Positions 2,410-19,135 of a DNA stretch of 19,784 bases are shown piece by piece. Each line of letters begins with the position of its first letter. Position 1 is the stretch's first letter. The notes beneath the pieces are model-generated. The model did no database searches. It was not told the origin of the DNA and was given only the letters and a program-made list of their open reading frames with translations. The position numbers and the translations under genes were made by a program. Source of the stretch: Clostridia bacterium (GTDB lineage: Bacteria > Bacillota > Clostridia > Christensenellales > Aristaeellaceae); contig JAUNDF010000030.1 of assembly GCA_030526225.1 (NCBI GenBank), forward strand, positions 1-19,784. Reading direction: 5' to 3'.

Positions 2410-2490
2410 GCTGACATGGTGGAATGGCAGACACTGGGGACTTAAAATCCCCTGCCGCAAGGCGTGCGGGTTCGACCCCCGCTGTCAGCA
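2410..2490 (+). tRNA. tRNA-Leu (anticodon UAA), class II with long variable arm, no encoded CCA
   Basis: Hand-folded cloverleaf. Acceptor GCTGACA/TGTCAGC plus discriminator A. D arm GTG-GAATGGCAGA-CAC. Anticodon stem GGGGA/TCCCC with loop CTTAAAA (UAA). Variable arm of 13 nt, TGCCGCAAGGCGT. T arm GCGGG-TTCGACC-CCCGC. Confidence 0.9.
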
Positions 2491-2497
2491 CAGAAAG

Positions 2498-2526
2498 CAC
2501 GCTGTTAAAACGCAGCGTGTTTTTTG
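2498..2526 (+). terminator. rho-independent terminator after tRNA-Leu
   Basis: Stem CACGCTG / CAGCGTG followed by TTTTTT. Confidence 0.7.
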
Positions 2527-2530
2527 CATT

Positions 2531-2567
2531 AAAAAAGAGAGCCTTCTCTTTGGAAAGCTCTCTTTTA
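2531..2567 (-). terminator. terminator of pfkA
   Basis: Stem AAGAGAGC / GCTCTCTT, with the U-run on the minus strand (plus-strand AAAAAA at 2531-2536). It lies 10 nt past the pfkA stop. Confidence 0.55.
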
Positions 2568-2576
2568 TGTATGTTC

Positions 2577-3647
2577 TTAATCGCCGAAGGAAATGCCCAT
2601 GGTCTTGGCAATGTTGACCATCTGGCTGTCAGCGGGGACGGGCTTGGGTACGCCTGCAATCTCCTGCAGGGGATTGTGGGTGATTTCGTTGCCCTTGAGT
2701 GCAACGGTAACGCCGAATACGCCATCGCGAATCAGCTCTGCGGCATGCACGCCGAACTGGGTGGACAGCACGCGGTCATAAGCGCTGGGGGAACCGCCGC
2801 GCTGAATATGACCGGGGACCACCGCTCTGGCTTCCACGCCGACGATTTCCTGCAGCTGGGCGGCAATATCGGCACTGGCAGAATAGTGGGCAGCGGCGCG
2901 CCTGGCCTCGCGCTCCTTCTTCTTCAGCTTGGCTTCTTCCTTGCTCATGGCGCCCTCGGCAACGGCAAGAATGGTGAAGCCCTTGTTGGACTTGGCGCGG
3001 CCCTCGACCACCTTGGCGACCTTCTTGATGTCATAGGGGATTTCGGGAATCAGAATCACATCAGCACCGCCGGCCACGCCGGAAAACAGGGTGAGCCAGC
3101 CGGCTTTGTTGCCCATGATTTCGATGACCATGCACCGGCCATGGCTGGCAGCGGTGGTATGGATGCGGTCAATCACATCGGTGGCAATATCAACCGCGGT
3201 ATGGAAGCCGAAGGTGAAATCGGTACCGTAGATATCGTTGTCGATGGTTTTCGGCAGACCGATGACGTTCAGACCCTCCTGACTGAGCAGATTGGCCGTT
3301 TTGTGGGTGCCGTTGCCGCCCAGGGTCACAAGGCAATCCAGCTTCAGATCCTTGTAGGTCTTTTTCATGGCGGCAACCTTGTCCACCTTGTCCTCGCCGA
3401 TGACCCGCATGTTGCGGAAGGGCGTACGGCTGGTGCCGAGGATGGTGCCGCCGATGGTCAGGATGCCGGAGAACTGCTCGCGCTTCATGGGCTGATAATC
3501 GCCCTCAATCAAACCGCGATAGCCATCATGGATGCCGATAATTTCAGCGTCAAACATTTCATAGGATGCACGGGCCACACCGCGAATGGCGGCATTCAAG
3601 CCGGGGCAGTCGCCGCCGCTTGTCAGAATACCGATTCTTCTTTTCAT
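2577..3647 (-). CDS. pfkA: ATP-dependent 6-phosphofructokinase
   Basis: N-terminus MKRRIGILTSGGDCPGLNAAIRG, plus GGDGT-like LGGNGT, PKTIDND and MGR-like IMGNKAGW motifs. AAGGAGG RBS. Stop TAA. Confidence 0.95.
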   Translation of the reverse strand: MKRRIGILTSGGDCPGLNAAIRGVARASYEMFDAEIIGIHDGYRGLIEGDYQPMKREQFSGILTIGGTILGTSRTPFRNMRVIGEDKVDKVAAMKKTYKDLKLDCLVTLGGNGTHKTANLLSQEGLNVIGLPKTIDNDIYGTDFTFGFHTAVDIATDVIDRIHTTAASHGRCMVIEIMGNKAGWLTLFSGVAGGADVILIPEIPYDIKKVAKVVEGRAKSNKGFTILAVAEGAMSKEEAKLKKKEREARRAAAHYSASADIAAQLQEIVGVEARAVVPGHIQRGGSPSAYDRVLSTQFGVHAAELIRDGVFGVTVALKGNEITHNPLQEIAGVPKPVPADSQMVNIAKTMGISFGD

Positions 3648-3669
3648 ACCGATAGCCTCCTTGATTAAC

Positions 3670-6926: not shown

Positions 6927-8900
6927 TTAAGCCTTGGGCATAACCACTGCCTTGATGCGGCGAACGCCGGCAGAGGAAGCCTCTTCCTTCTTAATCTTGA
7001 AGGAGCCCAGCTCACCGGTGTGCTCCACGTGGGGGCCGCCGCAGATTTCGAAGGAGAAGTCACCCATCTTGTAGGTGCGGACCTTCTCGCCGTACTTGCT
7101 CTCGAACACGTGCATAGCACCCTTTTCGATGGCTTCGGGCACGGTCATCTCTTCCATCACAACGGGCAGGTCGGCGGCGATGGCTTCGTTAACCAGCTTT
7201 TCCACCTCGGCCAGCTCGTCGGGGGTTACCTTGCGGTTAAAGGCGAAGTCGAAGCGCAGACGCTCGGCGGTGATGTTGGAGCCCTTCTGGTAGACCTCGT
7301 CACCCAGTACCTTGCGCAGTGCAGCCTGCAGCAGATGGGTGGCGGTGTGCAGCTTGGTGGTTTCCTCACTGTGGTCCTGCAGGCCGCCCTTGAAGGCACC
7401 GGCAGACAGGTTGCGGCTCTTTTCCTGATGCTCGTTGAAGCGCTTGTCAAAGTCCTCACGGTCAACGGTCAGGCCCTTTTCTGCTGCCAGCTCCATGGTC
7501 ATCTCAATGGGGAAGCCATAGGTATCATACAGCTTGAAGGCGCTGCGACCGTCGAGCACATTCAGGCCAGCCATGCGGGCTTCAACGGCAGCCTTCACAG
7601 CGGCGCTGTCACCGGACTTGCCGGCCTCGATGATGGGCAGCATGTCGGGAGAGGGGCGCAGCTTCTTGGTGGCAGCCAGCTCGTTGGCCTTGGCAGCGGA
7701 ATCCTCGGCAGTGAGGATGGACTCCAGCACAGCCTTGGTGTTCTGTAGGTTGTTCCACAGCTTCTCGAATTCCTTTTCGCCGGTCTTGAGGGTCTTGGCG
7801 AAACGGCTTTCCTCCTGAGTCAGCTGTTCGATGACGAAGGCGCTGTTCATGCCCAGCTCGGGATAAGCGGCCTTGTACTGATCAATGATAACCTTGGCAA
7901 TCTCGGCGGTGAAGCCCTCGGTCATGCCCAGCTGCATGCCGTAGCGGACGGCACGGCGAATCAGACGGCGCAGGATGTAGCCCTGATCGGTGTTGCTGGG
8001 GCCAATGCCGCGTTCATCACCCAGAATGAAGGTGGAAGTACGCATATGGTCAGCGATGATGCGGAATGCCTTGGTGGTTTCCTCGTCACTGCCATACTCC
8101 TTGCCGCTCAGCTCGGCAATGCGGTTGATGATGCCGGTGAAGGCATCGGTTTCGTATACGGTCTTCTTGCCGGTCAGCACGCCGATGGTACGCTCCAGGC
8201 CCATGCCGGTATCCACGTTCTTCTTGGCCAGCGGAACAAAGGTACCGTCAGCCTGCTTGTTGTACTGCATGAACACGTCATTCCAGATTTCCAGATAACG
8301 GCCGCAGGAGCAGGCAGGAGAGCAATCGGGGCCGCAGGGCTCCTTATCGGTGATGATGAACATCTCGGTATCGGGGCCGCAGGGACCGGTCAGGCCGGCA
8401 GGGCCCCACCAGTTGTTTTCCTTGGGCAGGTAGAAGATGTGATCCTCTGCCACACCCATAGAACGCCACAGGTCATGGCTTTCCACATCGCGGGGGCAGT
8501 CATCATCGCCGGCAAACACAGAGAATGCCAGACGGTCCTTCTCCAGACCCAGATATTCGGGGCTGGTGAGGAACTCCCAGCTCTGGGAAATGGCCTGTTC
8601 CTTGAAGTAATCACCCAGGGACCAGTTGCCCAGCATCTCGAAGAAGGTCAGGTGGCTGGGATCGCCGACATCATCAATGTCGCCGGTGCGGATGCACTTC
8701 TGCACGTCGGTCAGGCGGGTGCCGGCGGGATGGGGGGTACCCATCAGATAAGGCACCAGAGGATGCATGCCGGCTGTGGTGAACAGCACGGTGGGATCGT
8801 TTTCGGGAATAACAGAAGCCGACTGGATGCGGTGATGTCCCTTGCTTTCCATAAAGGACTGGAACATTTCACGCAGCTGAGCGGATGTAATCTGCTTCAT
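6927..8900 (-). CDS. alaS: alanine--tRNA ligase, short form (657 aa: catalytic, tRNA-recognition and editing domains, no C-Ala domain)
   Basis: Class II AlaRS motifs FTTAGMHPLVPY, FFEMLGNWSLGDYFK, WGPAGLTGPCGPDTEMF, IWNDVFMQYN and DTGMGLERT. Editing-domain motifs HTATHLLQAAL (HxxxH) and CGGPHV. The protein ends right after GVRRIKAV. GGAAGGAG RBS. Confidence 0.9.
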   Translation of the reverse strand: MKQITSAQLREMFQSFMESKGHHRIQSASVIPENDPTVLFTTAGMHPLVPYLMGTPHPAGTRLTDVQKCIRTGDIDDVGDPSHLTFFEMLGNWSLGDYFKEQAISQSWEFLTSPEYLGLEKDRLAFSVFAGDDDCPRDVESHDLWRSMGVAEDHIFYLPKENNWWGPAGLTGPCGPDTEMFIITDKEPCGPDCSPACSCGRYLEIWNDVFMQYNKQADGTFVPLAKKNVDTGMGLERTIGVLTGKKTVYETDAFTGIINRIAELSGKEYGSDEETTKAFRIIADHMRTSTFILGDERGIGPSNTDQGYILRRLIRRAVRYGMQLGMTEGFTAEIAKVIIDQYKAAYPELGMNSAFVIEQLTQEESRFAKTLKTGEKEFEKLWNNLQNTKAVLESILTAEDSAAKANELAATKKLRPSPDMLPIIEAGKSGDSAAVKAAVEARMAGLNVLDGRSAFKLYDTYGFPIEMTMELAAEKGLTVDREDFDKRFNEHQEKSRNLSAGAFKGGLQDHSEETTKLHTATHLLQAALRKVLGDEVYQKGSNITAERLRFDFAFNRKVTPDELAEVEKLVNEAIAADLPVVMEEMTVPEAIEKGAMHVFESKYGEKVRTYKMGDFSFEICGGPHVEHTGELGSFKIKKEEASSAGVRRIKAVVMPKA

Positions 8901-8952
8901 TGTGACTATCTCCTTCCGGTTATCGCACGATGGCGCTAAACTCACAAATGTC

Positions 8953-8981
8953 ATTATAGCAAAGGATACGCACGATTGCAA
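8953..8981 (-). promoter_or_regulatory. promoter of alaS
   Basis: On the minus strand: TTGCAA, 17-nt spacer, TATAAT. The leader is only about 50 nt. Confidence 0.6.
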
Positions 8982-8996
8982 GCACTTCACAGTCGA

Positions 8997-11471: not shown

Positions 11472-12239
11472 TTACATGTCCTCAGGGCGGGTACGGGGCT
11501 TGGTAATCTTTGCCACCAGAATGCTGACCTCATACAGCAGCAGCATGGGAATCGCCAGCATGCACTGGGAAACCACGTCCGGCGGGGTCAGCACAGCCGC
11601 AAACACGGCGATGCCCAGAATGACGAACTTCCGCTTCTGTGCCAGCATCTGTGCATTGGTCCAGCCCATACGGGTGGTGATGTACAGTGCCACCGGCAGC
11701 AGGAACGCCACGCCGAAGGGCACGATAAAGCCGAACAGGAAGCCGACGTAGCTGTCAATGCCCAGCATGGGAGTTGCCAGGTTTTCACCGGCGACGAGGA
11801 AGAAATCCACCGCCAGGAAATACACGGCAAAGTAACAGAAGGTTACGCCCAGCAGAAACAAGAATACAGCCACGAAGAACAGGCCGCTGAACAGCTTCTT
11901 TTCATCATCGTACAGGGCGGGCTTGATGAAATTCCACAGCTGCCAGATGATGACCGGGCTGGAGATGATGGCAGCTGCAATCAGTGCCACCTTCAGCTTG
12001 GTCATCAGCGCCTCTGACATGGCGGTGTAGATGATTTCAATGCCGCGGGCCTTGATGGGGCCGGTAATCAGGCCCATCAGCCAATCCACGCAGGTGTAAA
12101 AAATCACCAGAAAGGAAATACCCAGTGCGCCAGCACTGACAAACAGCACCTTGCGCAGTGCCAGCAGGTGGCTGAGCAGCGTTTCCTTTGCCTGTGCCTG
12201 CTCCTGCTGCCGGGTGGACTTTTCAGGTTTCTTTTCCAT
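11472..12239 (-). CDS. tatC: twin-arginine translocase subunit TatC
   Basis: 255 aa with six hydrophobic segments. Family pattern LSHLLALRKVL...GPIKA...ALMTKLKVA...PALYDDEKK. GGAGG RBS. Confidence 0.9.
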   Translation of the reverse strand: MEKKPEKSTRQQEQAQAKETLLSHLLALRKVLFVSAGALGISFLVIFYTCVDWLMGLITGPIKARGIEIIYTAMSEALMTKLKVALIAAAIISSPVIIWQLWNFIKPALYDDEKKLFSGLFFVAVFLFLLGVTFCYFAVYFLAVDFFLVAGENLATPMLGIDSYVGFLFGFIVPFGVAFLLPVALYITTRMGWTNAQMLAQKRKFVILGIAVFAAVLTPPDVVSQCMLAIPMLLLYEVSILVAKITKPRTRPEDM

Positions 12240-12274
12240 GGTTGATAAAATCCTCCATCAGGAAAGAAGCCGGA

Positions 12275-12466
12275 TTAAGCCTTTTCCTCTTCCTTCTTTT
12301 CTTCGGTCTTCTCTTCGGCCTTGGCGGGCTCGTCGTCCTTCATTTCGTTCTTGAAGTCCTTGATGCTCTTGCCCAGAGCCTTACCAACACCGGCCAGCTT
12401 GCTGCCGCCGAACAGTACCAGAGCCAGAACGAGAATCAGAGCAATTTCCCAGGGTCCCAGACGCAT
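12275..12466 (-). CDS. tatA: twin-arginine translocase subunit TatA/E
   Basis: MRLGPWEIALILVLALVLFGGSKLAGVGKALGKSIKDFK is the canonical TatA TM helix, FGG hinge and amphipathic helix, followed by an acidic/lysine tail. AAGGAGG RBS. Confidence 0.85.
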   Translation of the reverse strand: MRLGPWEIALILVLALVLFGGSKLAGVGKALGKSIKDFKNEMKDDEPAKAEEKTEEKKEEEKA

Positions 12467-12489
12467 AATGATGTCCTCCTTGATGTCAA

Positions 12490-12813
12490 TCAATGTTGTT
12501 TGGTTTCTTCTTCGGATTTCTTTAAGTCACGCTTAATGTCGCTGAAGCTGCGCTGCAGCTGCTGCTTTGTATCGCGGATGTCTGCCGTAATGTCTGCTTC
12601 CTTCATGGTCGCATCGATTTCCTTTTTGGTTTCCTCCAGATCGGCGGTCAGATTGTTCCAACCGGTCTCTTCCTTCAGCTCCTTCAGCATCCTGCGGAGA
12701 GCCTTCAGCTGCCTGGCTATCCAGCGGGCTACCTTTGGCAGGTCCTTGGGGCCAACCACCAGAAAGGCTATCAACAGCACCACGACCAGTTCGGCCATGC
12801 CAATGTTAAACAA
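12490..12813 (-). CDS. tatB: TatB-like TatA-family subunit (107 aa)
   Basis: (M)FNIGMAELVVVLLIAFLVVGPKDLPKVARWIARQLKALRR shows the GPxxLP hinge and long amphipathic helix typical of TatB. The start is set at TTG 12813, 7 nt after AGGAGG (alternative ATG 12798). Confidence 0.7.
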   Translation of the reverse strand: MFNIGMAELVVVLLIAFLVVGPKDLPKVARWIARQLKALRRMLKELKEETGWNNLTADLEETKKEIDATMKEADITADIRDTKQQLQRSFSDIKRDLKKSEEETKQH

Positions 12814-12844
12814 GCATTGCCCTCCTTTCATGAGCGCTTTTTGT

Positions 12845-12873
12845 ATTGTACCCCAAAAAAACAAGAATTGCAA
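12845..12873 (-). promoter_or_regulatory. promoter of the tatB-tatA-tatC operon
   Basis: On the minus strand: TTGCAA, 17-nt spacer, TACAAT, about 30 nt upstream of the tatB-like start. Confidence 0.55.
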
Positions 12874-13027
12874 CATTCACTTGAAAATGAAAATAATTTC
12901 GAACAGACAAGCTGCTTCTATATAAAAACATGAAGAATGATAATTTTTCAGCATTTTGTCACTTTATAAATTATGCATTTTCCAAAAACAATGCACAAAA
13001 GTTATAGCTTGTCAACAGGTCAAAAAC

Positions 13028-13056
13028 TTGAAAAAAGGTACTGTTTATGTTATATT
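13028..13056 (+). promoter_or_regulatory. promoter of the FeS-subunit/AOR operon
   Basis: TTGAAA, 17-nt spacer, TATATT. This predicts a 5-prime UTR of about 230 nt. Confidence 0.6.
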
Positions 13057-13065
13057 CTAAGAAAC

Positions 13066-13160
13066 GAATAGAGTCTCCGAGTTTGTATAAGCCCTCCGGG
13101 TTTTGCAAACCATTGGGTGATTCCGGCAACGGAATGGCCTGCCTTTTGCGAAGGAGTGAA
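13066..13160 (+). promoter_or_regulatory. candidate molybdenum/tungsten cofactor (Moco RNA motif) riboswitch
   Basis: Starts just after the predicted TSS. It contains blocks I recall as conserved in the Moco motif: CUCCGAG (13075-13081), GCCCUCC (13091-13097), GGCCUGCC (13137-13144) and GAAGGAG (13150-13156). CUCC/GGAG can close a P1 stem, and AUUCCG-GCAA-CGGAAU forms a GNRA-capped hairpin. It lies upstream of a pterin-enzyme operon. Not verified with a covariance model. Confidence 0.5.
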
Positions 13161-13296
13161 TAAAGAAGCTGCGGGCAGCGTTATATTTGCTGTCTACATT
13201 TTCTTTGTTCACTTTTTGTGCGTTTGCACAGAAAACTCATTCGTGAAACAAACGTTTGGTTTCCAAACATCCACAATTTGTAAGGAGGAGAAAACA

Positions 13297-13428
13297 ATGG
13301 CTGATACAAAGCGCTTCCTTGACAAGGACTACACCCGCCGCCAGTTCCTGAAGCTGTCCGGCAAGAGCCTGGCCGGCCTGTCCATGTCCGGCAGCATGCT
13401 GGCTGCTCTGGGTGTAACCGCGCAGGCA
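13297..13428 (+). other. twin-arginine signal peptide
   Basis: TRRQFLK matches the S/T-R-R-x-F-L-K consensus exactly. A hydrophobic h-region follows, then an AQA-VAE signal peptidase I site after residue 44. Confidence 0.75.
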
Positions 13429-13926
13429 GTTGCAGAGGACAAGGTCCGCGTTTGGGCATTCCCTCAGGGCCTGCTGGTGGTCGATGCTGACCGCTGCGTA
13501 GGCTGCCAGCGCTGCGAAATTAACTGCACGCTGACCAACGACGGCTGCTGCTCCAGCTACATTTCCCGCGTAAAGGTAACCCGTAACCTGACCTCCAGCC
13601 GCAACGGCAACGGTCTGTACACCGAAAACAACTGGACCTACTTCCCTGACACCTGCCGTCAGTGCGAAGATCCTGCCTGCGGCAATGCCTGCCCCATGCA
13701 GGCCATCGAGGCCGGCTTCGACGGTGTTCGCCGCGTAAACCAGGACAAGTGCGTTGGCTGCGGTGCCTGCGTACAGGCTTGCCCCTGGCACATGCCCACC
13801 GTTAACCCCGAAACCAAGAAGTCTTCCAAGTGCGTGCTGTGCGGCGAATGTGCCCGCGGCTGCCCCTCCGGCGCTCTGTCCATCATTCCCTGGGACAAGG
13901 TTTCTGCCGCTGCTCAGGAAGTCTAA
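13297..13926 (+). CDS. Tat-exported 4x[4Fe-4S] ferredoxin-like electron-transfer subunit (DmsB/NrfC/YdhX-like)
   Basis: Strong AAGGAGG RBS 6 nt upstream of the ATG. Twin-arginine signal present. Four cluster motifs: CVGCQRCEINC, CRQCEDPACGNACP, CVGCGACVQACP and CVLCGECARGCP. No C-terminal TM segment. Confidence 0.9.
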   Translation: MADTKRFLDKDYTRRQFLKLSGKSLAGLSMSGSMLAALGVTAQAVAEDKVRVWAFPQGLLVVDADRCVGCQRCEINCTLTNDGCCSSYISRVKVTRNLTSSRNGNGLYTENNWTYFPDTCRQCEDPACGNACPMQAIEAGFDGVRRVNQDKCVGCGACVQACPWHMPTVNPETKKSSKCVLCGECARGCPSGALSIIPWDKVSAAAQEV

Positions 13927-13959
13927 TCGTCCGGGAAAAATATCAAGGAGGAATAAACA

Positions 13960-16128
13960 ATGTCTGTTAAGAATGGCATTTACGGCTGGGCCGGTCAGAT
14001 TGCTCGCATCAACCTGACCACTGGCGAAGTCACCAAGGAAGACACCCTGCCCAAGTATAAGCCCTTCATCGGCGGCATGGGTCTGGGCTACAAGGTCATT
14101 TGGGACGAAGTACCCCTGGAGACCGATGCTCTGGCTCCCGAAAGCAAGGTTGTGTTCGGCGTAGGTCCTCTGACCGCTTCCGGCGTTCCCTGCTCCGGCC
14201 GTCTGAATATCTCTTTCCTGTCCAACTGGTCCAAGGGCAACTCCATCGTTGACGCTCACATGGGCGGCCACTTTGCTCATGCCATGAAGTATGCCGGCTA
14301 TGACGCCATCATTCTGGAAGGCCAGAGCGACAAGCCCGTGTACATCAAGATTGATGACGAAAACATCACCCTGGAGGACGCTTCCCATGTTTGGGGTACC
14401 GGCACCTTCAACACCAACAAGGTGATTGCTGCTGAGTGCGGCGATACCTTCGATGTGTGCTCCATCGGCCAGGCCGGTGAGAACCTGGTGCCCATGTCCA
14501 CCATCATCACCTCTGTCGGCAACTCCGGCGGTGCCGGCATCGGTGCTATCCTGGGTTCCAAGAAGGTGAAGGCTCTGGCTGCCCGCGGCACCGGCGCTGT
14601 GAAGATTGCAGAACCCATCAAGCTGCGTGAGCTGTCCAACTACATGATCAAGGATCTGGTTGGCGGCAACAACAACCACAACGTGCCTTCTGTGCCTCAG
14701 TCCTGGGCTGAGTACTCCGCTACCTCCAAGAACCGTTGGCAGGGTGGCCCCGGCGTTGTTTGGGGCAAGGCTCCCAACGGCCCCGTGGATACCGGCGAAC
14801 AGCCCAGCGGCCAGATTAACGTTGCCGCTATGCGCTGCAACAAGGGCGTATTCGACTTCGGCCATGTGGCTGAAAAGTGGACTGTAAAGCAGGGCGGCTG
14901 CTCCTCCTGTCCCGTTCGCTGCTATACCGAGTACGAAATGGATCCCCTGGCTGATTTCGATCTGCCCACCCACGTTTCCAACACCTGCATGCCCATCATC
15001 TCCGGCAAGAGCATCTTCCCCGGCAAGAGCAACATCCATGACTTCGTGGACGAAGGCGATGCCGGCATGATTCTGGGCGGCTCCATGAGCCGTGCACAGG
15101 ACGAATACGGTGTATGGTGCAACTACGGCAACGTTTACTCTGACTTCTATCGTCTGTACAACGACGGTATCCTGAAGGAACACTTCACCGAGGAAGAGTG
15201 GAACGAAGTCAACTGGCAGTACATGCTGGACGGCGATCCCCGTTGGGCATGGGAGTTCTTCAAGCACATTGCCGAGGGCAAGGGTGTTTGGGCTGACCTG
15301 GGCATGGGTTCCTATTACCTGTACCAGAAGTGGGGCCTGGACGACGCTACCAAGAACAGCGCCGGCAAGAACTACTATGATGAGGTCATCGGCAAGAACA
15401 CCAACGTGACCTACAACGGCTATCCCAAGCATCACTCCTCCGAGGATGCATGGCAGTCCGGTCTGCTGTACAACGCTATGTACAACCGTGACTGCATGAT
15501 TCACCACTGCACCAACTTCGTCCGTTCCGGCTCTCCCTATGAAGAGGTCATCAAGCCCGTTCTGGCTTACTGGTTCGGCGAAGGCGCTACCGACGCTCCC
15601 AAGAAGTACACCCCCATCAACGACGCCAAGATCCGCGTTGCCAAGTGGTCCTTCCTGGGCAAGCAGTGGCATGACTCCGCTACCCTGTGCAACTGGATGT
15701 ACCCCATGACCCTGTCCACCTCCAAGAAGCGCAACTACATCGGCGACCTGGATCTGGATGCCAAGTACATGAGCGCTGTGACCGGCGAAGAATACACCCG
15801 CGAGTCCATCGACTTCGACTGCGAGCGTATCTCTCACCTGCTGCGCGCCATGACTGCCATCTCCTTCAAGATCAACCTGGGCAGCGATAACCTGCGCAAG
15901 GATCATGACGCCATCCCCGCTTGGGTATTCGACAAGGAACCCGACTTCAAGGCCTTCGAAGAGGGCACTGTGAAGATGGACCGTGACGACATGGAGAAGG
16001 CTTTCACCATGTTCTACGAGGCCATGGGCTGGGACACCGAAACCGGCATCCCCACCCGTGAGACCCTGGAGAAGTATGACCTGGCTGACGTTGCCGACAA
16101 GCTGGCTTCCTACGGCCTGATCAAGTAA
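13960..16128 (+). CDS. aldehyde:ferredoxin oxidoreductase (AOR) family tungsto-/molybdopterin enzyme, YdhV-like, no signal peptide
   Basis: AOR N-terminal domain pattern GWAGQIARINLTTGEV...GGMGLG...GPLTASGVP.SGR...KYAGYDAIILEG. CSSCPVRC is the CxxCxxxC [4Fe-4S] motif. AAGGAGG RBS lies 33 nt after the FeS gene. Codon bias is very strong. Confidence 0.9.
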   Translation: MSVKNGIYGWAGQIARINLTTGEVTKEDTLPKYKPFIGGMGLGYKVIWDEVPLETDALAPESKVVFGVGPLTASGVPCSGRLNISFLSNWSKGNSIVDAHMGGHFAHAMKYAGYDAIILEGQSDKPVYIKIDDENITLEDASHVWGTGTFNTNKVIAAECGDTFDVCSIGQAGENLVPMSTIITSVGNSGGAGIGAILGSKKVKALAARGTGAVKIAEPIKLRELSNYMIKDLVGGNNNHNVPSVPQSWAEYSATSKNRWQGGPGVVWGKAPNGPVDTGEQPSGQINVAAMRCNKGVFDFGHVAEKWTVKQGGCSSCPVRCYTEYEMDPLADFDLPTHVSNTCMPIISGKSIFPGKSNIHDFVDEGDAGMILGGSMSRAQDEYGVWCNYGNVYSDFYRLYNDGILKEHFTEEEWNEVNWQYMLDGDPRWAWEFFKHIAEGKGVWADLGMGSYYLYQKWGLDDATKNSAGKNYYDEVIGKNTNVTYNGYPKHHSSEDAWQSGLLYNAMYNRDCMIHHCTNFVRSGSPYEEVIKPVLAYWFGEGATDAPKKYTPINDAKIRVAKWSFLGKQWHDSATLCNWMYPMTLSTSKKRNYIGDLDLDAKYMSAVTGEEYTRESIDFDCERISHLLRAMTAISFKINLGSDNLRKDHDAIPAWVFDKEPDFKAFEEGTVKMDRDDMEKAFTMFYEAMGWDTETGIPTRETLEKYDLADVADKLASYGLIK

Positions 16129-16158
16129 TTCTTCCCAAGTTCACATATGTAACAATGG

Positions 16159-16190
16159 GCGGAGGAGAGCAATCTCCTCCGCTTTTCCTC
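16159..16190 (+). terminator. strong rho-independent terminator of the FeS/AOR operon
   Basis: Stem GCGGAGGAGA / TCTCCTCCGC (10 bp) with a GCAA tetraloop, followed by TTTTCCTCTT. Confidence 0.8.
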
Positions 16191-16219
16191 TTGACGAATA
16201 CCCCCCGAGGGTATATATT
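16191..16219 (+). promoter_or_regulatory. promoter of the acidic orphan gene
   Basis: TTGACG, 17-nt spacer, TATATT, directly after the AOR terminator. Confidence 0.55.
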
Positions 16220-16248
16220 GAAATCAGTAAATGAAAGGAGTGAACGCA

Positions 16249-17058
16249 ATGTTGTTCGGAAGAAGAAAGCCCGGTTTCGCCAAGGAAGTGGACAAGACCG
16301 AAGAGGTTGTGGATTACTTCTGCGACGCCAACGACCCTGCCATGAATCGTCAGGCAGATAACCCCAAGCAGGAAAAGGCAGAAATCATCGCCGCCGCTGA
16401 TGCCGTGATGAACGGTGAAGCCGCACCGGCTGAGGAAAAGGTAAACCTCCTGGATTATATGGAATCCCTGCCCGAGGTTAATGACCCCTTCCCCGCCAGC
16501 GAGGATCCCATGATTGAATCCCCCGAGGAGCACAAGGCCCAGCTGAAGGACGGCGAAATCCTGGCCGAGTTTGTCCGTGAGCGCAGCGCCAATGGTCTGA
16601 TTACCGCCAAGAAGCCGCTGATGAAGGAAGACGAGAATATGCCTGCCATGCTGGAAGAAATGTTCTCTCTGGAATCCTGCGCCGATATCAAGGAAGTAAA
16701 GGGCAACAAGGACGAGTACCTGTACTCCGATGAAAACATGGCCAACAACTACGCCATGATTGCCATGCTGGTTGAGGAAAAGGATATTGCCCGGACCATG
16801 GCTCACATGATTCGGTTCAACGCAAAGACCTATCCCGCCCCGACTCCCCTGTACTACTTCCAGAAAACCCCTTATAACTACACCATGCCGCAGATTCAGA
16901 ACGCGCTGCGGGCCATCCGTTCCAACCCGGATACTCAGGACATCAAGTCCTACACCACCCACAACAACATCGAGTATCTCTACCCCGAAGGCATCATGAG
17001 CTTCAAGTATGCCCGTGCCCTTGCCGAGGATGCAGAGACCGATGAGGCCGGCAACTGA
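16249..17058 (+). CDS. acidic hypothetical protein (269 aa), possibly YdhW-like companion of YdhV-type AOR
   Basis: AAAGGAG RBS with ATG at 16249 (residue 7 of the listed ORF). The N-terminal half is D/E/P-rich and looks disordered. The C-terminal half looks globular (ILAEFVRERS, DEYLYSD, MIRFNAKTYPAP). The position after the AOR gene parallels ydhW in E. coli. The family assignment is from memory and synteny only. Confidence 0.6.
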   Translation: MLFGRRKPGFAKEVDKTEEVVDYFCDANDPAMNRQADNPKQEKAEIIAAADAVMNGEAAPAEEKVNLLDYMESLPEVNDPFPASEDPMIESPEEHKAQLKDGEILAEFVRERSANGLITAKKPLMKEDENMPAMLEEMFSLESCADIKEVKGNKDEYLYSDENMANNYAMIAMLVEEKDIARTMAHMIRFNAKTYPAPTPLYYFQKTPYNYTMPQIQNALRAIRSNPDTQDIKSYTTHNNIEYLYPEGIMSFKYARALAEDAETDEAGN

Positions 17059-17073
17059 TTATCAAACAAATAC

Positions 17074-17104
17074 AGCCGACAGGAGCATTTCCTGCCGGCT
17101 TTTT
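17074..17104. terminator. bidirectional terminator between the orphan gene and the convergent fdhD-like gene
   Basis: Stem AGCCGACAGG / CCTGCCGGCT (1 mismatch) followed by TTTT. Confidence 0.6.
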
Positions 17105-17106
17105 GA

Positions 17107-17781
17107 TTACACAATATGCGATTGACTGCCCCATACTGCAAGATGATCAGAGGCTGCCTTCCCGATGAGGGTGATGTTCAGCTTTTCCGCCCAATGCACG
17201 GCTAAATCGCCGGGGTATTTCCGGCTGAAAAACACCGGAATGCCTGCCATGGCCGCCTTACACAGCATTTCAAGGGAGAGGCGGCCTGTGCTGCCCAGCA
17301 CGCATCGGTGCATATCCCATCCGGCATAAAGACAGGCGGCAATCACCTTGTCTACAGCATTGTGGCGGCCAATGTCCTCACGGAAAATGGTCTGCCCTTC
17401 ACACGCCAGCATCGCCCGATGATTGCCGAAGCTTCCCTTCCCGGCCAGCAGCTGTGCACACAGGTCTTTGATTTCCGCAGGGGTGACAGACTTGCCCACA
17501 GGGACAGGCTGACAGCGCTGCAGCCGCTCAAGAATATCCGCAGGGGGATTGTTCTGCAATCTGGCGGTAACATCATAAACATCGCCATGCCGGTCAAGCT
17601 TCAGCACATCCGATACTGATGCAATGCGGCCTTCTGTCACCAAACCGCCCGCCAGCAGCTCTTCCTGATGCCGGGCAGTACACAGCTTCGGCGACTGCCT
17701 GACGCCGTTCAGCGACCAAAAGAGCAGCGATTCCTGCATGACGGCATGCTCTGCATTGTGCAGGCTATTCATTGGACCCAT
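17107..17781 (-). CDS. fdhD: FdhD-family molybdo/tungstopterin enzyme accessory protein (short form, no CxxC)
   Basis: EDIGRHNAVDKVIAA, GSTGRLSLEMLCKAAMAGIPV and AEKLNITLIG are hallmark FdhD motifs. The start could be ATG 17781 or 17772. Confidence 0.75.
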   Translation of the reverse strand: MGPMNSLHNAEHAVMQESLLFWSLNGVRQSPKLCTARHQEELLAGGLVTEGRIASVSDVLKLDRHGDVYDVTARLQNNPPADILERLQRCQPVPVGKSVTPAEIKDLCAQLLAGKGSFGNHRAMLACEGQTIFREDIGRHNAVDKVIAACLYAGWDMHRCVLGSTGRLSLEMLCKAAMAGIPVFFSRKYPGDLAVHWAEKLNITLIGKAASDHLAVWGSQSHIV

Positions 17782-17791
17782 CCCCTTTTCA

Positions 17792-17827
17792 GCAAAATCC
17801 CCGGAGCCCTGTTGCAGGCTTCCGGGG
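17792..17827 (-). terminator. hairpin/terminator after the guaA-like gene, directly upstream of fdhD
   Basis: Stem CCCCGGAAGCC / GGCTCCGGGG (one bulge) followed by ATTTTG on the minus strand. Confidence 0.5.
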
Positions 17828-17835
17828 AGAAAATT

Positions 17836-18816
17836 TTATTCCCATTCGATGGTTCCGGAGGGCTTGGGCGTGAGGTCATAGAGGACACGGTTCACGCCAT
17901 CCACCTCGGCGGTGATGCGGTCGGTGATGCGATGCAGCAGCGCATAGGGAATCTCTTCGATGGTGGCTGCCATGGCATCCACGGTGTTCACCGCGCGGAT
18001 AATCACAGGGTATGCATAGGTGCGGGCACCATTCTTCACGCCGACGGAACGGAAATCCGGCACGGCAGTGAAATACTGCCACACCTTGCCTTCCAGACCG
18101 GCCTTGGCAAACTCCTCGCGAAGAATGGCATCGGATTCGCGGACGCACTCAAGACGGTCACGGGTGATGGCACCCAGGCAGCGCACACCCAGTCCGGGAC
18201 CGGGGAAAGGCTGACGGTAGACCATGCCATCCGGCAGGCCCAGTGCCTTGCCCACCACGCGAACCTCGTCCTTGTACAGGAACTTCAGGGGCTCCACCAA
18301 TTCGAACTGCAGGTCTTCAGGCAGACCGCCCACATTGTGGTGTGCCTTTACGCCATCGCTCTCCAGAATATCGGGGTAGATGGTGCCCTGTGCCAGGAAT
18401 TCGATGCCCTCCTGCTTGCGGGCTTCTTCCTCAAACACGCGGATGAATTCTGCGCCGATAATCTTGCGCTTCTGCTCGGGCTCTGCCACGCCGGCCAGCT
18501 TGTCAAGGAAGCGGTCCACCGCATCCACATAGACAAGATTGGCGTTCATCTGGTTGCGGAAAACCTCCACCACCTGCTCCGGCTCACCCTTGCGCAGCAG
18601 GCCATGGTTGACATGCACGCACACCAGCTGCTGGCCGATGGCCTTAATCAGCAATGCCGCAACAACGGAAGAGTCCACACCGCCGGACAAAGCCAGCAGC
18701 ACCTTTTTGCCGCCGACCTGCTTTTGGATTTCAGCAACCTGCTCGGCAATGAACGCATCAGCCAAAGCCTGAGTATTGATTCTTGCCATGGATTCCGGGC
18801 GCTTATTGTTTTCCAT
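17836..18816 (-). CDS. guaA: GMP synthase ATP-pyrophosphatase plus dimerisation domains only (GuaA subunit-B-like, 326 aa, no glutamine amidotransferase domain)
   Basis: [16 protein letters not shown] is the PP-loop SGGx[44 protein letters not shown] and the C-terminal PSGTIEWE are also present. AAGGAG RBS lies 6 nt upstream of ATG 18816. Confidence 0.9.
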
Positions 18817-18853
18817 AATATGCTCCTTTTTTTGTGTAGGATTTGCTTCCTTT

Positions 18854-18882
18854 ATGATACCAGTCCGGGCAGGAAAATGCAA
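18854..18882 (-). promoter_or_regulatory. promoter of the guaA-like gene
   Basis: On the minus strand: TTGCAT, 17-nt spacer, TATCAT, about 35 nt upstream of the start codon. Confidence 0.5.
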
Positions 18883-19135
18883 GTTCTTTTGCAAAACGAA
18901 TGCTGGTTTTGGTGGATTTGGGTGGGGGTAAGTGTGGGGACTCAATTACTTTTATATCACATTCCACATTCATGCCTTCCTTATCCCGATTCACAAGGCA
19001 CGGACGAATCCTATGCAAAGCAGAAGCTGGACGAGCGAATGGACGAGATAATGAAGCTCTTCTCCGAGAACCTTGATTTGGGTCTGGACGAACTTCGGCT
19101 GAAGTTCCGGGGCAAGAAACCTAATGAATAACAAT

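Follow-up and report, generated by a model that had tools for sequence, protein, structure and literature searches.

A predicted Class V tungsten oxidoreductase locus in minimal three-gene form, beside tat genes in a Clostridia genome

Clade 41 of the tungsten oxidoreductase (WOR) family was named "Class V WORs" in June 2026 (PMC13328260). Members of this class consist of an L subunit (YdhV), an S subunit (YdhY) that bears a signal for twin-arginine translocation (Tat), a transmembrane (TM) domain or both, and one or more additional subunits; they make up more than 10% of the family and are common in gut bacteria, with no known activity (PMC13328260). In Cetobacterium somerae the class is represented by a three-gene L/S/W operon with tatAE, tatC, fdhD, moeA and tupABC nearby, and the L subunit preferred W over Mo (PMC13328260). 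According to Reschke 2019, as cited in PMC13328260, E. coli YdhV binds bis-Mo-MPT (MPT, molybdopterin). Here a related locus is described at positions 11472-17781 of a 19,784-nt stretch of a Clostridia genome (contig JAUNDF010000030.1; the whole stretch is referred to as the window), in which a ydhY-ydhV-ydhW trio on the plus strand lies next to tat genes, an fdhD-like gene and a putative cofactor riboswitch. The explanation that best fits the locus as a whole, and which is judged probable, is that of a Class V W/Mo bis-pyranopterin oxidoreductase encoded together with its export machinery.

In a BLASTP comparison with the E. coli K-12 ydh proteins (reference locus L001), the products of the trio are 45% (YdhY, full length), 46% (YdhV, across 714 residues) and 34% (YdhW) identical to their counterparts, and the genes stand in the same order. 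Because of this orthology, the shared order and the published features of the class, the locus is read as a minimal, three-gene representative of Class V (clade 41, YdhYVW-type) and not as an orphan. The catalytic gene ydhV (worL; 13960-16128, plus strand) encodes a 722-aa AOR-family protein with AFOR_N (211 bits) and AFOR_C (117 bits) domains and a PRK09849 score of 878.3 (cutoff 868), matches which, together with the identity to E. coli YdhV, place it in the YdhV lineage. It carries a CSSCPVRC motif and is predicted to be the bis-pyranopterin W/Mo catalytic subunit; only its N-terminal ~230 residues align by sequence to solved AOR/FOR-family structures. Its N-terminus, MSVKNGIYGWAG, holds no signal peptide, nor do those of its orthologs. 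Translationally adjacent to ydhV is ydhY (worS; 13297-13926, plus strand), predicted to encode a 4x[4Fe-4S] electron-transfer subunit with a Tat signal, which scores 237 bits against PRK09898 (cutoff 213), is 31% identical to E. coli YdhX and has TtrB, DmsB, NrfC and HybA as its best non-YdhY NCBIfam matches. The further gene that characterizes the class is supplied by ydhW (16249-17058, plus strand; 269 aa), directly downstream of ydhV, with 141.5 bits against PRK09947, under the cutoff of 203.

The likeness to the Cetobacterium system (CsWOR41) comprises the AOR-family L subunit, the four-cluster S subunit with its Tat signal, the YdhW-like third gene and the proximity of tatA/E, tatC and fdhD. 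Cetobacterium is a diderm fusobacterium, whereas the host of the window belongs to a Clostridia lineage which, judging from its taxonomy, would have a single-membrane envelope. The window also differs in lacking tupABC and moeA, in the TatB-like gene among its tat genes and in the P3-less molybdenum/tungsten cofactor (Moco/Tuco) riboswitch that appears to precede the operon. Its S subunit, finally, has neither lipobox nor TM helix; the text of PMC13328260 names no lipobox, lipoprotein or Christensenellales. The E. coli ydhYVWXUT locus differs in its three additional genes, for YdhX (a second Tat iron-sulfur (FeS) protein), YdhU (cytochrome b-like) and YdhT: tblastn with these E. coli proteins gave no match at E<=1e-5 in any of 80 related loci, obtained in one scan of species-representative genomes (YdhV 59-93% identical), so that no six-gene locus of the E. 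coli type was seen. E. coli YdhY has R-L in place of the R-R of the window protein and an LLGC lipobox-like end in place of its A-x-A. The LFGRRKPGF peptide with which window YdhW begins, and its acidic linker, have no counterpart in the E. coli protein. The structurally characterized WOR5 (6x6u), AorABC (8c0z) and WorLS (9mqx) are related in the L N-terminal domain and in the polyferredoxin-like S subunit, but are cytoplasmic and without Tat signal. A canonical Class I cytoplasmic, ferredoxin-linked AOR was likewise ruled out, as ydhV is paired with a Tat-signal FeS subunit. An earlier note on this DNA, made from the sequence without database searches, had regarded the E. coli ydh locus as the sole and merely comparable Tat-linked case. 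This view needs revision, since ydhY, ydhV and ydhW are orthologous and Class V is now named and widespread (PMC13328260); any near-unprecedented status of the system is thus out of date.

The evidence for export comes primarily from YdhY. Its signal region (about 13297-13434, plus strand) consists of T13-R-R-Q-F-L-K19, a weakly hydrophobic, Ser/Gly-rich h-region and A42-Q-A-V-A46, with cleavage predicted after A44 or A46. Four Cys motifs follow (C67xxCxxCxxxC, C120xxCxxxxCxxxCP, C152xxCxxCxxxCP and C179xxCxxCxxxCP), and the C-terminus has no hydrophobic stretch. The Tat motif, the h-region, the AQAVA site and the PRK09898 score together identify the small FeS subunit with Tat signal that is typical of Class V. 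The earlier note had already recognized the four cluster motifs, a perfect TRRQFLK, an AQA site and the absence of a C-terminal TM helix in this protein, as well as a 722-aa AOR-family partner without signal peptide, and all of these readings hold when the sequence at 13297-13926, the AFOR profiles and the YdhV N-terminus are inspected. Among 120 YdhY cluster representatives, retrieved in a search of 5.8 billion proteins, T-R-R-x-F-[LM]-K is present in 119, the sole exception being N-terminally truncated, and among the 80 related loci it is also found wherever the N-terminus is intact, so that the twin arginine is not generally lost among orthologs. A comparable arrangement is known from [NiFe] hydrogenases, in which the Tat signal is carried by the FeS electron-transfer subunit only, while the catalytic subunit that holds the cofactor is without one. 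This small subunit of the hydrogenases is as a rule anchored by a C-terminal TM segment or joined to a membrane partner; for YdhY here neither is seen, and the catalytic subunits are unrelated. Export of YdhY-YdhV is considered very likely from these motifs, and the earlier idea that the catalytic subunit would hitchhike on the YdhY signal is strongly supported by the invariant Tat motif and the frequently adjacent tat genes.

The end of the YdhY signal divides the family. A lipobox, L-[FLM]-G-C, closes the h-region in 58 of the 120 representatives, including those of Tissierellaceae, Hungatella, Wansuia, Varibaculum, Desulfitobacterium, Vermiculatibacterium and Pseudoflavonifractor, and these proteins are predicted to be Tat-dependent lipoproteins. 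The clade of the window has no Cys at this position but a small-x-small site that is strictly conserved, A/S-[VLI]-A and then E-D, corresponding to A44-V-A46|E-D in window YdhY. This site is better conserved than AQA, where relatives show EKA, KEA or QQA. The h-region is also less hydrophobic, with a median of the best 15-residue Kyte-Doolittle mean of 1.40 in the clade of the window versus 1.67 in the lipobox clade. The conserved A-x-A|ED and the weak h-region argue for cleavage by signal peptidase I and the lack of a covalent anchor. Because this site stands in place of the lipobox, an anchor-free enzyme is plausible in the clade of the window, with a chance that we put at even or slightly better. 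In E. coli YdhY (L001, 8852-9478, minus strand) the twin arginine is degenerate (T-R-L-E-F-L-R) and the h-region ends in LLSLLGC, which is lipobox-like; the export route and lipidation of this protein may merit a second look.

Divergent from the ydhY-ydhV operon, and on the minus strand, lie the tat genes in the order tatB-like, tatA, tatC (12813-11472). The tatC gene (11472-12239) encodes 255 aa with ~6 TM helices (PF00902, 205 bits; TIGR00945, 183.3 versus a cutoff of 132.7) and tatA (12275-12466) 63 aa starting from MRLGPWE (PF02416, 61.7 bits; TIGR01411, 60.4 versus 53.9). A second TatA-family gene, tatB-like (12490-12813; 107 aa), is borderline at 56.3 against the TIGR01410 cutoff of 56.5. 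Its product has an MFNIGMAEL N-terminus, a GP hinge and a long amphipathic helix, and its TTG start at 12813 is preceded by GGAGGG 6 nt upstream. The components of a TatABC translocase are thus represented by TatC and TatA above curated cutoffs and by a borderline TatB backed by the MF-IG--EL N-terminus and the GP hinge. A promoter-like site for the operon, found by consensus scan, is located at 12845-12873 on the minus strand (TTGCAA-17-TACAAT). The divergent tat operon described in the earlier note is in this way upheld by the Pfam and NCBIfam scores, and the profile searches it had proposed gave matches for AFOR_N/AFOR_C, TatA and TatC. In the clade of the window the tatB-like gene is kept beside tatA and tatC; Tissierellaceae and Hungatella loci have TatA copies and TatC only, in contrast to this third component. 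Across the related loci tatC occurs in 42 of 80. In 38 of these loci ydhV is fully flanked, with 4 kb or more of sequence to either side; of the 38, 24 have tatC no further than 10 kb away and 19 no further than 4 kb. Relatives differ in where tat stands with respect to ydhY and in which direction it is read. Linkage is frequent, not obligatory. Of the earlier proposal that the enzyme is served by a locally encoded Tat system, the adjacency thus stands, here and often in relatives.

The neighbourhood was searched for a membrane anchor or electron partner. A haem motif (CxxCH) and a lipobox at the N-terminus are absent from the products of all 18 genes callable in the window, none of which matched a cytochrome, an NrfD/PhsC-type protein or a second Tat FeS family in Pfam and NCBIfam scans. 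The only membrane proteins encoded are an AI-2E transporter, YeiH, MatE and TatC, and neither TM helix nor lipobox is found in YdhY, YdhV or YdhW; by being exported, the enzyme would nevertheless come to lie at the surface of the membrane. Crude open reading frame (ORF) calls from the 80 loci and the window were also clustered. TatC and a ModB-like permease are the only recurrent multi-TM neighbours, the others being MoeA, MoaA, MoaC, MobB, MoaB-like and ModA-type binding proteins, and the order ydhY-ydhV-ydhW is kept in all loci whose contig reaches far enough. The absence of a nearby NrfD/PhsC/YdhU-type subunit, cytochrome or lipobox, noted earlier for this stretch, is consequently confirmed in the window and extended to the 80 loci in so far as no linked membrane subunit was seen; no gene for a membrane anchor regularly lies beside ydhYV. 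In three Hungatella loci only (L061, about 7148-8161; L067, 5120-5920; L070, 7520-8311), an exported RnfG-like FMN-binding protein is encoded next to the module, between fdhD and tatC. This is a candidate extracytoplasmic flavin electron partner, and is probably the "membrane-bound flavin-binding subunit" reported for gut Clostridia (PMC13328260); no homologue is found in the window.

Upstream of ydhY, a putative Moco/Tuco riboswitch aptamer occupies positions 13063-13172 on the plus strand (RF01055, 34.2 bits, E=7.9e-5, with the P3 hairpin deleted). It is preceded by a promoter-like site at 13028-13056 (plus strand; TTGAAA-17-TG-TATATT, 10/12 matches in a consensus scan, with an extended -10 TG). 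The same ~110-nt element is found 5' of ydhY in relatives, at 45.3, 45.1, 40.7 and 33.0 bits, the first three above the Rfam gathering score. A covariance model built from five aptamer copies and run on the related loci gave matches of 52-108 bits upstream of ydhY in 55 of them, all of Christensenellales type (listed within L002-L059, L069, L074, L075, L077 and L080), and in none of the Tissierellaceae and Hungatella loci. The stems vary with compensating changes, which is consistent with membership in RF01055. A terminator-like long hairpin with a U-run (13154-13219, plus strand; hairpin of 61 nt, -29.9 kcal/mol, then UUUUUGU) overlaps with its 5' arm the 3' strand of aptamer P1, and such a P1-overlapping hairpin with a U-run is also present in 15 of 22 relatives examined. 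Because the 3' strand of P1 is common to aptamer and terminator, bound cofactor should prevent termination, and an ON switch may be inferred in which P1, stabilized by the cofactor, would allow synthesis of the apoenzyme while cofactor is at hand. Moco riboswitches that do contain P3 (64-74 bits; L035, 15378-15514, plus; L041, 7449-7583, minus; L022, 1210-1348, minus; L072, 5358-5498, plus) sit in regions holding Moco-biosynthesis or transport genes, as in L035 with moeA-moaA-moaC. The contigs of L035, L041 and L022 carry both a P3-containing aptamer (69-74 bits) and a P3-less copy upstream of ydhY, and these genomes therefore have two aptamer classes with different targets. The P3-less class has been reported to correlate almost perfectly with tungsten-cofactor metabolism (Regulski et al. 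2008, PMC2408646).

Convergent with ydhW is an fdhD-like gene (17107-17781, minus strand; 224 aa), with 130.7 bits against PF02634 (FdhD-NarQ), under both NCBIfam equivalog cutoffs (96 versus 140.9 and 113.7 versus 269), and present in 17 of the 38 fully flanked loci. Of the features of an FdhD sulfurtransferase, the fold and the CxxC loop, the domain is present and the cysteine loop missing. No CxxC occurs in the window protein, and the persulfide loop of E. coli FdhD, GC121GVC124G, is absent in all 16 of the aligned copies linked to ydhYVW loci (window, L023, L024, L046, L060-L063, L065, L067, L068, L070-L073 and L077). The motif GRHNAVDK is retained (GRHxAxDK in linked copies). As the CxxC loop is lost while GRHxAxDK is kept, a role as pterin-cofactor chaperone appears more likely than one as sulfurtransferase.

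In both Firmicute clades YdhW, whose gene follows ydhV in all related loci that reach far enough, opens with an essentially invariant M(x)LFGRRK(P)GF (MLFGRRKPGF in the window), a twin arginine without a subsequent hydrophobic region. The linker behind this peptide is acidic and disordered and holds the conserved motif DLxDYxxSLPxVEDPF. Residues 100-269 are modelled by AlphaFold2 with a predicted local distance difference test score >90 as two helix-helix-helix-strand-strand units, winged-helix-like. Foldseek returned weak winged-helix matches only (ESCRT-II, SelB and ScpB, all E>=0.01), and there was no sequence match in the PDB and none in the Pfam scan. A Tat chaperone of the TorD/DmsD/NarJ type is ruled out by the predicted fold, which is tandem winged-helix-like and not all-helical as in TorD. 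An exhaustive search gave 426 YdhW-domain clusters at E<=0.001, a few of which start with TM helices and then basic residues, faintly suggesting that the domain works on the cytoplasmic face. YdhW may be a maturation or targeting factor or a true subunit; an apparent Tat-lipoprotein homologue (P0271) was judged a chimeric or frameshifted contig product and set aside. Two tandem YdhW-like genes follow ydhV in L055 (6711-7992), L058 (3125-4606), L069 (3463-4635) and L079 (12278-13463). The riboswitch, the identity of the fdhD-like gene and ydhW, all three within the very coordinates it covered, had been overlooked by the earlier note.

The two redox genes are the most codon-biased in the window, with an effective number of codons of 28.5 for YdhV and 30.1 for YdhY, compared to 32.2 for AlaS and 34.2 for PfkA, and a correlation in relative synonymous codon usage (RSCU) to AlaS plus GuaA of 0.91-0.92. 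This agrees with the earlier statement that their bias is on a par with pfkA and alaS, and suggests high expression of ydhYV and long residence in the genome. Between ydhV and ydhW a terminator-like hairpin (16157-16184, plus strand; 12-bp stem, 7 G-C pairs, T-rich tail) is followed by a promoter-like site (16191-16219, plus strand), and on the basis of these elements (16157-16219) ydhW transcription may be partly independent of ydhYV. A further terminator-like hairpin found by scan (17074-17100, both strands) is common to the convergent ydhW and fdhD-like genes.

Taken together, the following course of events is proposed. Transcription would start near 13056 and proceed into the P3-less aptamer, where bound cofactor would prevent termination so that ydhY-ydhV is made. 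In the cytoplasm, YdhV would receive the pterin cofactor and a [4Fe-4S] cluster and YdhY its four clusters, probably with the assistance in maturation of YdhW and of the FdhD-like protein, which has no persulfide-carrying cysteines. The folded YdhY-YdhV dimer would then be exported by the adjacent TatA/TatB-like/TatC on the YdhY signal alone, as in [NiFe] hydrogenases. Signal peptidase I would cleave at A-x-A|ED, and since the lipobox is replaced by this conserved site in the clade of the window, the mature enzyme would most likely be released without covalent anchor on the outer face of the single membrane, where the four-cluster wire of YdhY may exchange electrons with a partner that is not encoded nearby. 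The soluble extracytoplasmic enzyme envisaged in the earlier note is only one option: the conserved A-x-A|ED site and the weak h-region of the clade of the window, as opposed to the lipobox in sister clades and in E. coli YdhY, speak for it, but the signal might also stay uncleaved, the enzyme be retained or a partner be encoded elsewhere.

Several observations weigh against this reading. The tat genes are not adjacent in 14 of the 38 fully flanked loci, and both the cleavage at AQA/AVA and the loss of the anchor are read from motifs. The FMN-binding neighbour in Hungatella suggests that partners exist in some lineages, and an electron partner could be encoded elsewhere in the genome, beyond the window. 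The window aptamer scores just under the Rfam gathering score of 36, and the tungsten interpretation of the P3-less class is contested because relatives have linked transporters of ModA type, with TIGR01256 scores above cutoff, and not TupA/WtpA. The hints on the metal are thereby conflicting, the riboswitch class pointing to W and the ModA-type binding proteins to Mo. Aldehyde chemistry is not established for Class V either, as the only partly purified catalytic subunit, that of C. somerae, oxidised 0 of 46 aldehydes; the class as such was described as membrane-associated and presumed respiratory (PMC13328260).

The last point also bears on the alternative that the same exported enzyme is the peripheral head of a membrane respiratory complex, its partner (an NrfD/PsrC-like quinol dehydrogenase, a cytochrome b or a flavinylated FMN-binding lipoprotein) being encoded elsewhere in the genome, or that an uncleaved signal serves as tether. 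Four-cluster FeS subunits such as TtrB, DmsB, NrfC and HybA normally deliver electrons to a membrane anchor, YdhX, YdhU and YdhT are added in E. coli, about half of the YdhY family would be lipid-anchored through the lipobox and the RnfG-like FMN_bind protein adjoins the module in Hungatella. However, no such partner gene occurs within 10 kb in the loci of the window clade, where TatC and ModB are the only recurrent multi-TM proteins, and the weak h-region (maximum 15-residue Kyte-Doolittle mean ~1.4) together with the strictly conserved small-x-small site favours cleavage. We therefore regard a membrane complex as possible but not the probable form of the enzyme. That the enzyme instead remains in the cytoplasm, its twin-arginine region being vestigial or a chaperone-binding remnant, as may hold for E. 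coli YdhY with its R-L, is very unlikely. To our knowledge all characterised AOR-family enzymes are indeed cytoplasmic, and YdhV was predicted to be so in two partner-less Coriobacteriia genomes (Ravcheev & Thiele 2014), but 119 of the 120 representatives keep the full Tat motif together with an h-region and either a cleavage site or a lipobox, tat genes are physically linked in most loci, and selection would not hold a lipobox or an A-x-A site in a vestigial signal. The compactness of the self-contained cassette of tat, enzyme and maturation genes, and the differing arrangement and direction of tat with respect to ydhY among relatives, might alternatively be explained by a recently transferred island or an assembly artefact without settled role. 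This is the least credible explanation: the codon usage is like that of AlaS and GuaA and the most biased in the window, the GC content is level across the region, no mobile-element genes were seen in the window, and the same cassette recurs in dozens of related species at 60-93% identity, which fits vertical descent.

A more far-reaching version of the exported Class V enzyme may also be considered, namely that throughout a large clade of gut and rumen Clostridia of Christensenellales type the lipid anchor is gone and YdhY-YdhV is a free and abundant heterodimer in the wall space of a single-membrane cell. It would act there on a substrate outside the cell, with diffusible or unlinked electron carriers in place of a quinone-linked respiratory chain, and its synthesis would be switched on by a riboswitch class specific for the W (or nucleotide-free bis-pterin) cofactor. 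This combination is speculative and on balance unlikely, but if true it would represent the first non-membrane-bound extracytoplasmic W/Mo enzyme of the AOR family, and no earlier case of an ON switch activated by cofactor would be known for an apoenzyme of that family.

As to the source lineage and the remainder of the window, the nearest genome loci come from metagenome-assembled genomes of the gut of horse, human, chicken and ruminants, which bear the labels Clostridia, Christensenellales, Candidatus Ventricola and Candidatus Egerieenecus, with an NCBI placement in Bacillota, Clostridia. Long antisense ORFs at 13237-15906 (minus; 889 aa, in ydhV), 2424-3668 (plus; in pfkA) and 17668-19131 (plus; in guaA) were dismissed as artefacts of coding sequence rich in G and C at third codon positions (GC3); they gave zero family matches, and 2424-3668, the one measured, has atypical codon usage. 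The crude ORF caller often chose the long antisense ORF inside ydhV in the survey loci. The real pfkA is located at 2577-3647 (minus) and a tRNA-Leu(TAA) at 2410-2491 (plus). The guaA gene (17836-18945, minus) covers GMP synthase only in its ATP-pyrophosphatase and C-terminal part (positions 174-512 of the 512 in the profile), and a glutamine amidotransferase domain is found neither in it nor adjoining it. Alanyl-tRNA synthetase (6927-8990, minus) is a short form of 687 aa (best model PRK01584, 595 positions), in which the editing (SAD) domain is kept and the long C-terminal domain missing.

What is known of Class V is unchanged by the finding itself. Modestly new are the switch from lipobox to signal peptidase I site that would mark a large gut and rumen clade, the P3-less riboswitch with its putative ON-type platform, the cysteine-less FdhD and the anatomy of YdhW. 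The locus and its ~55 close relatives appear to represent Class V at its most stripped-down, reduced to the pair of redox subunits, YdhW, Tat, a factor resembling FdhD and a riboswitch for the cofactor, and with neither a linked membrane subunit nor, as predicted, a lipid anchor. Because of this minimal form, the clade may offer a clean system in which to approach the role and electron flow of the enzyme, the sensing of W versus Mo by P3-less riboswitches, and the function of YdhW and of the cysteine-less FdhD.

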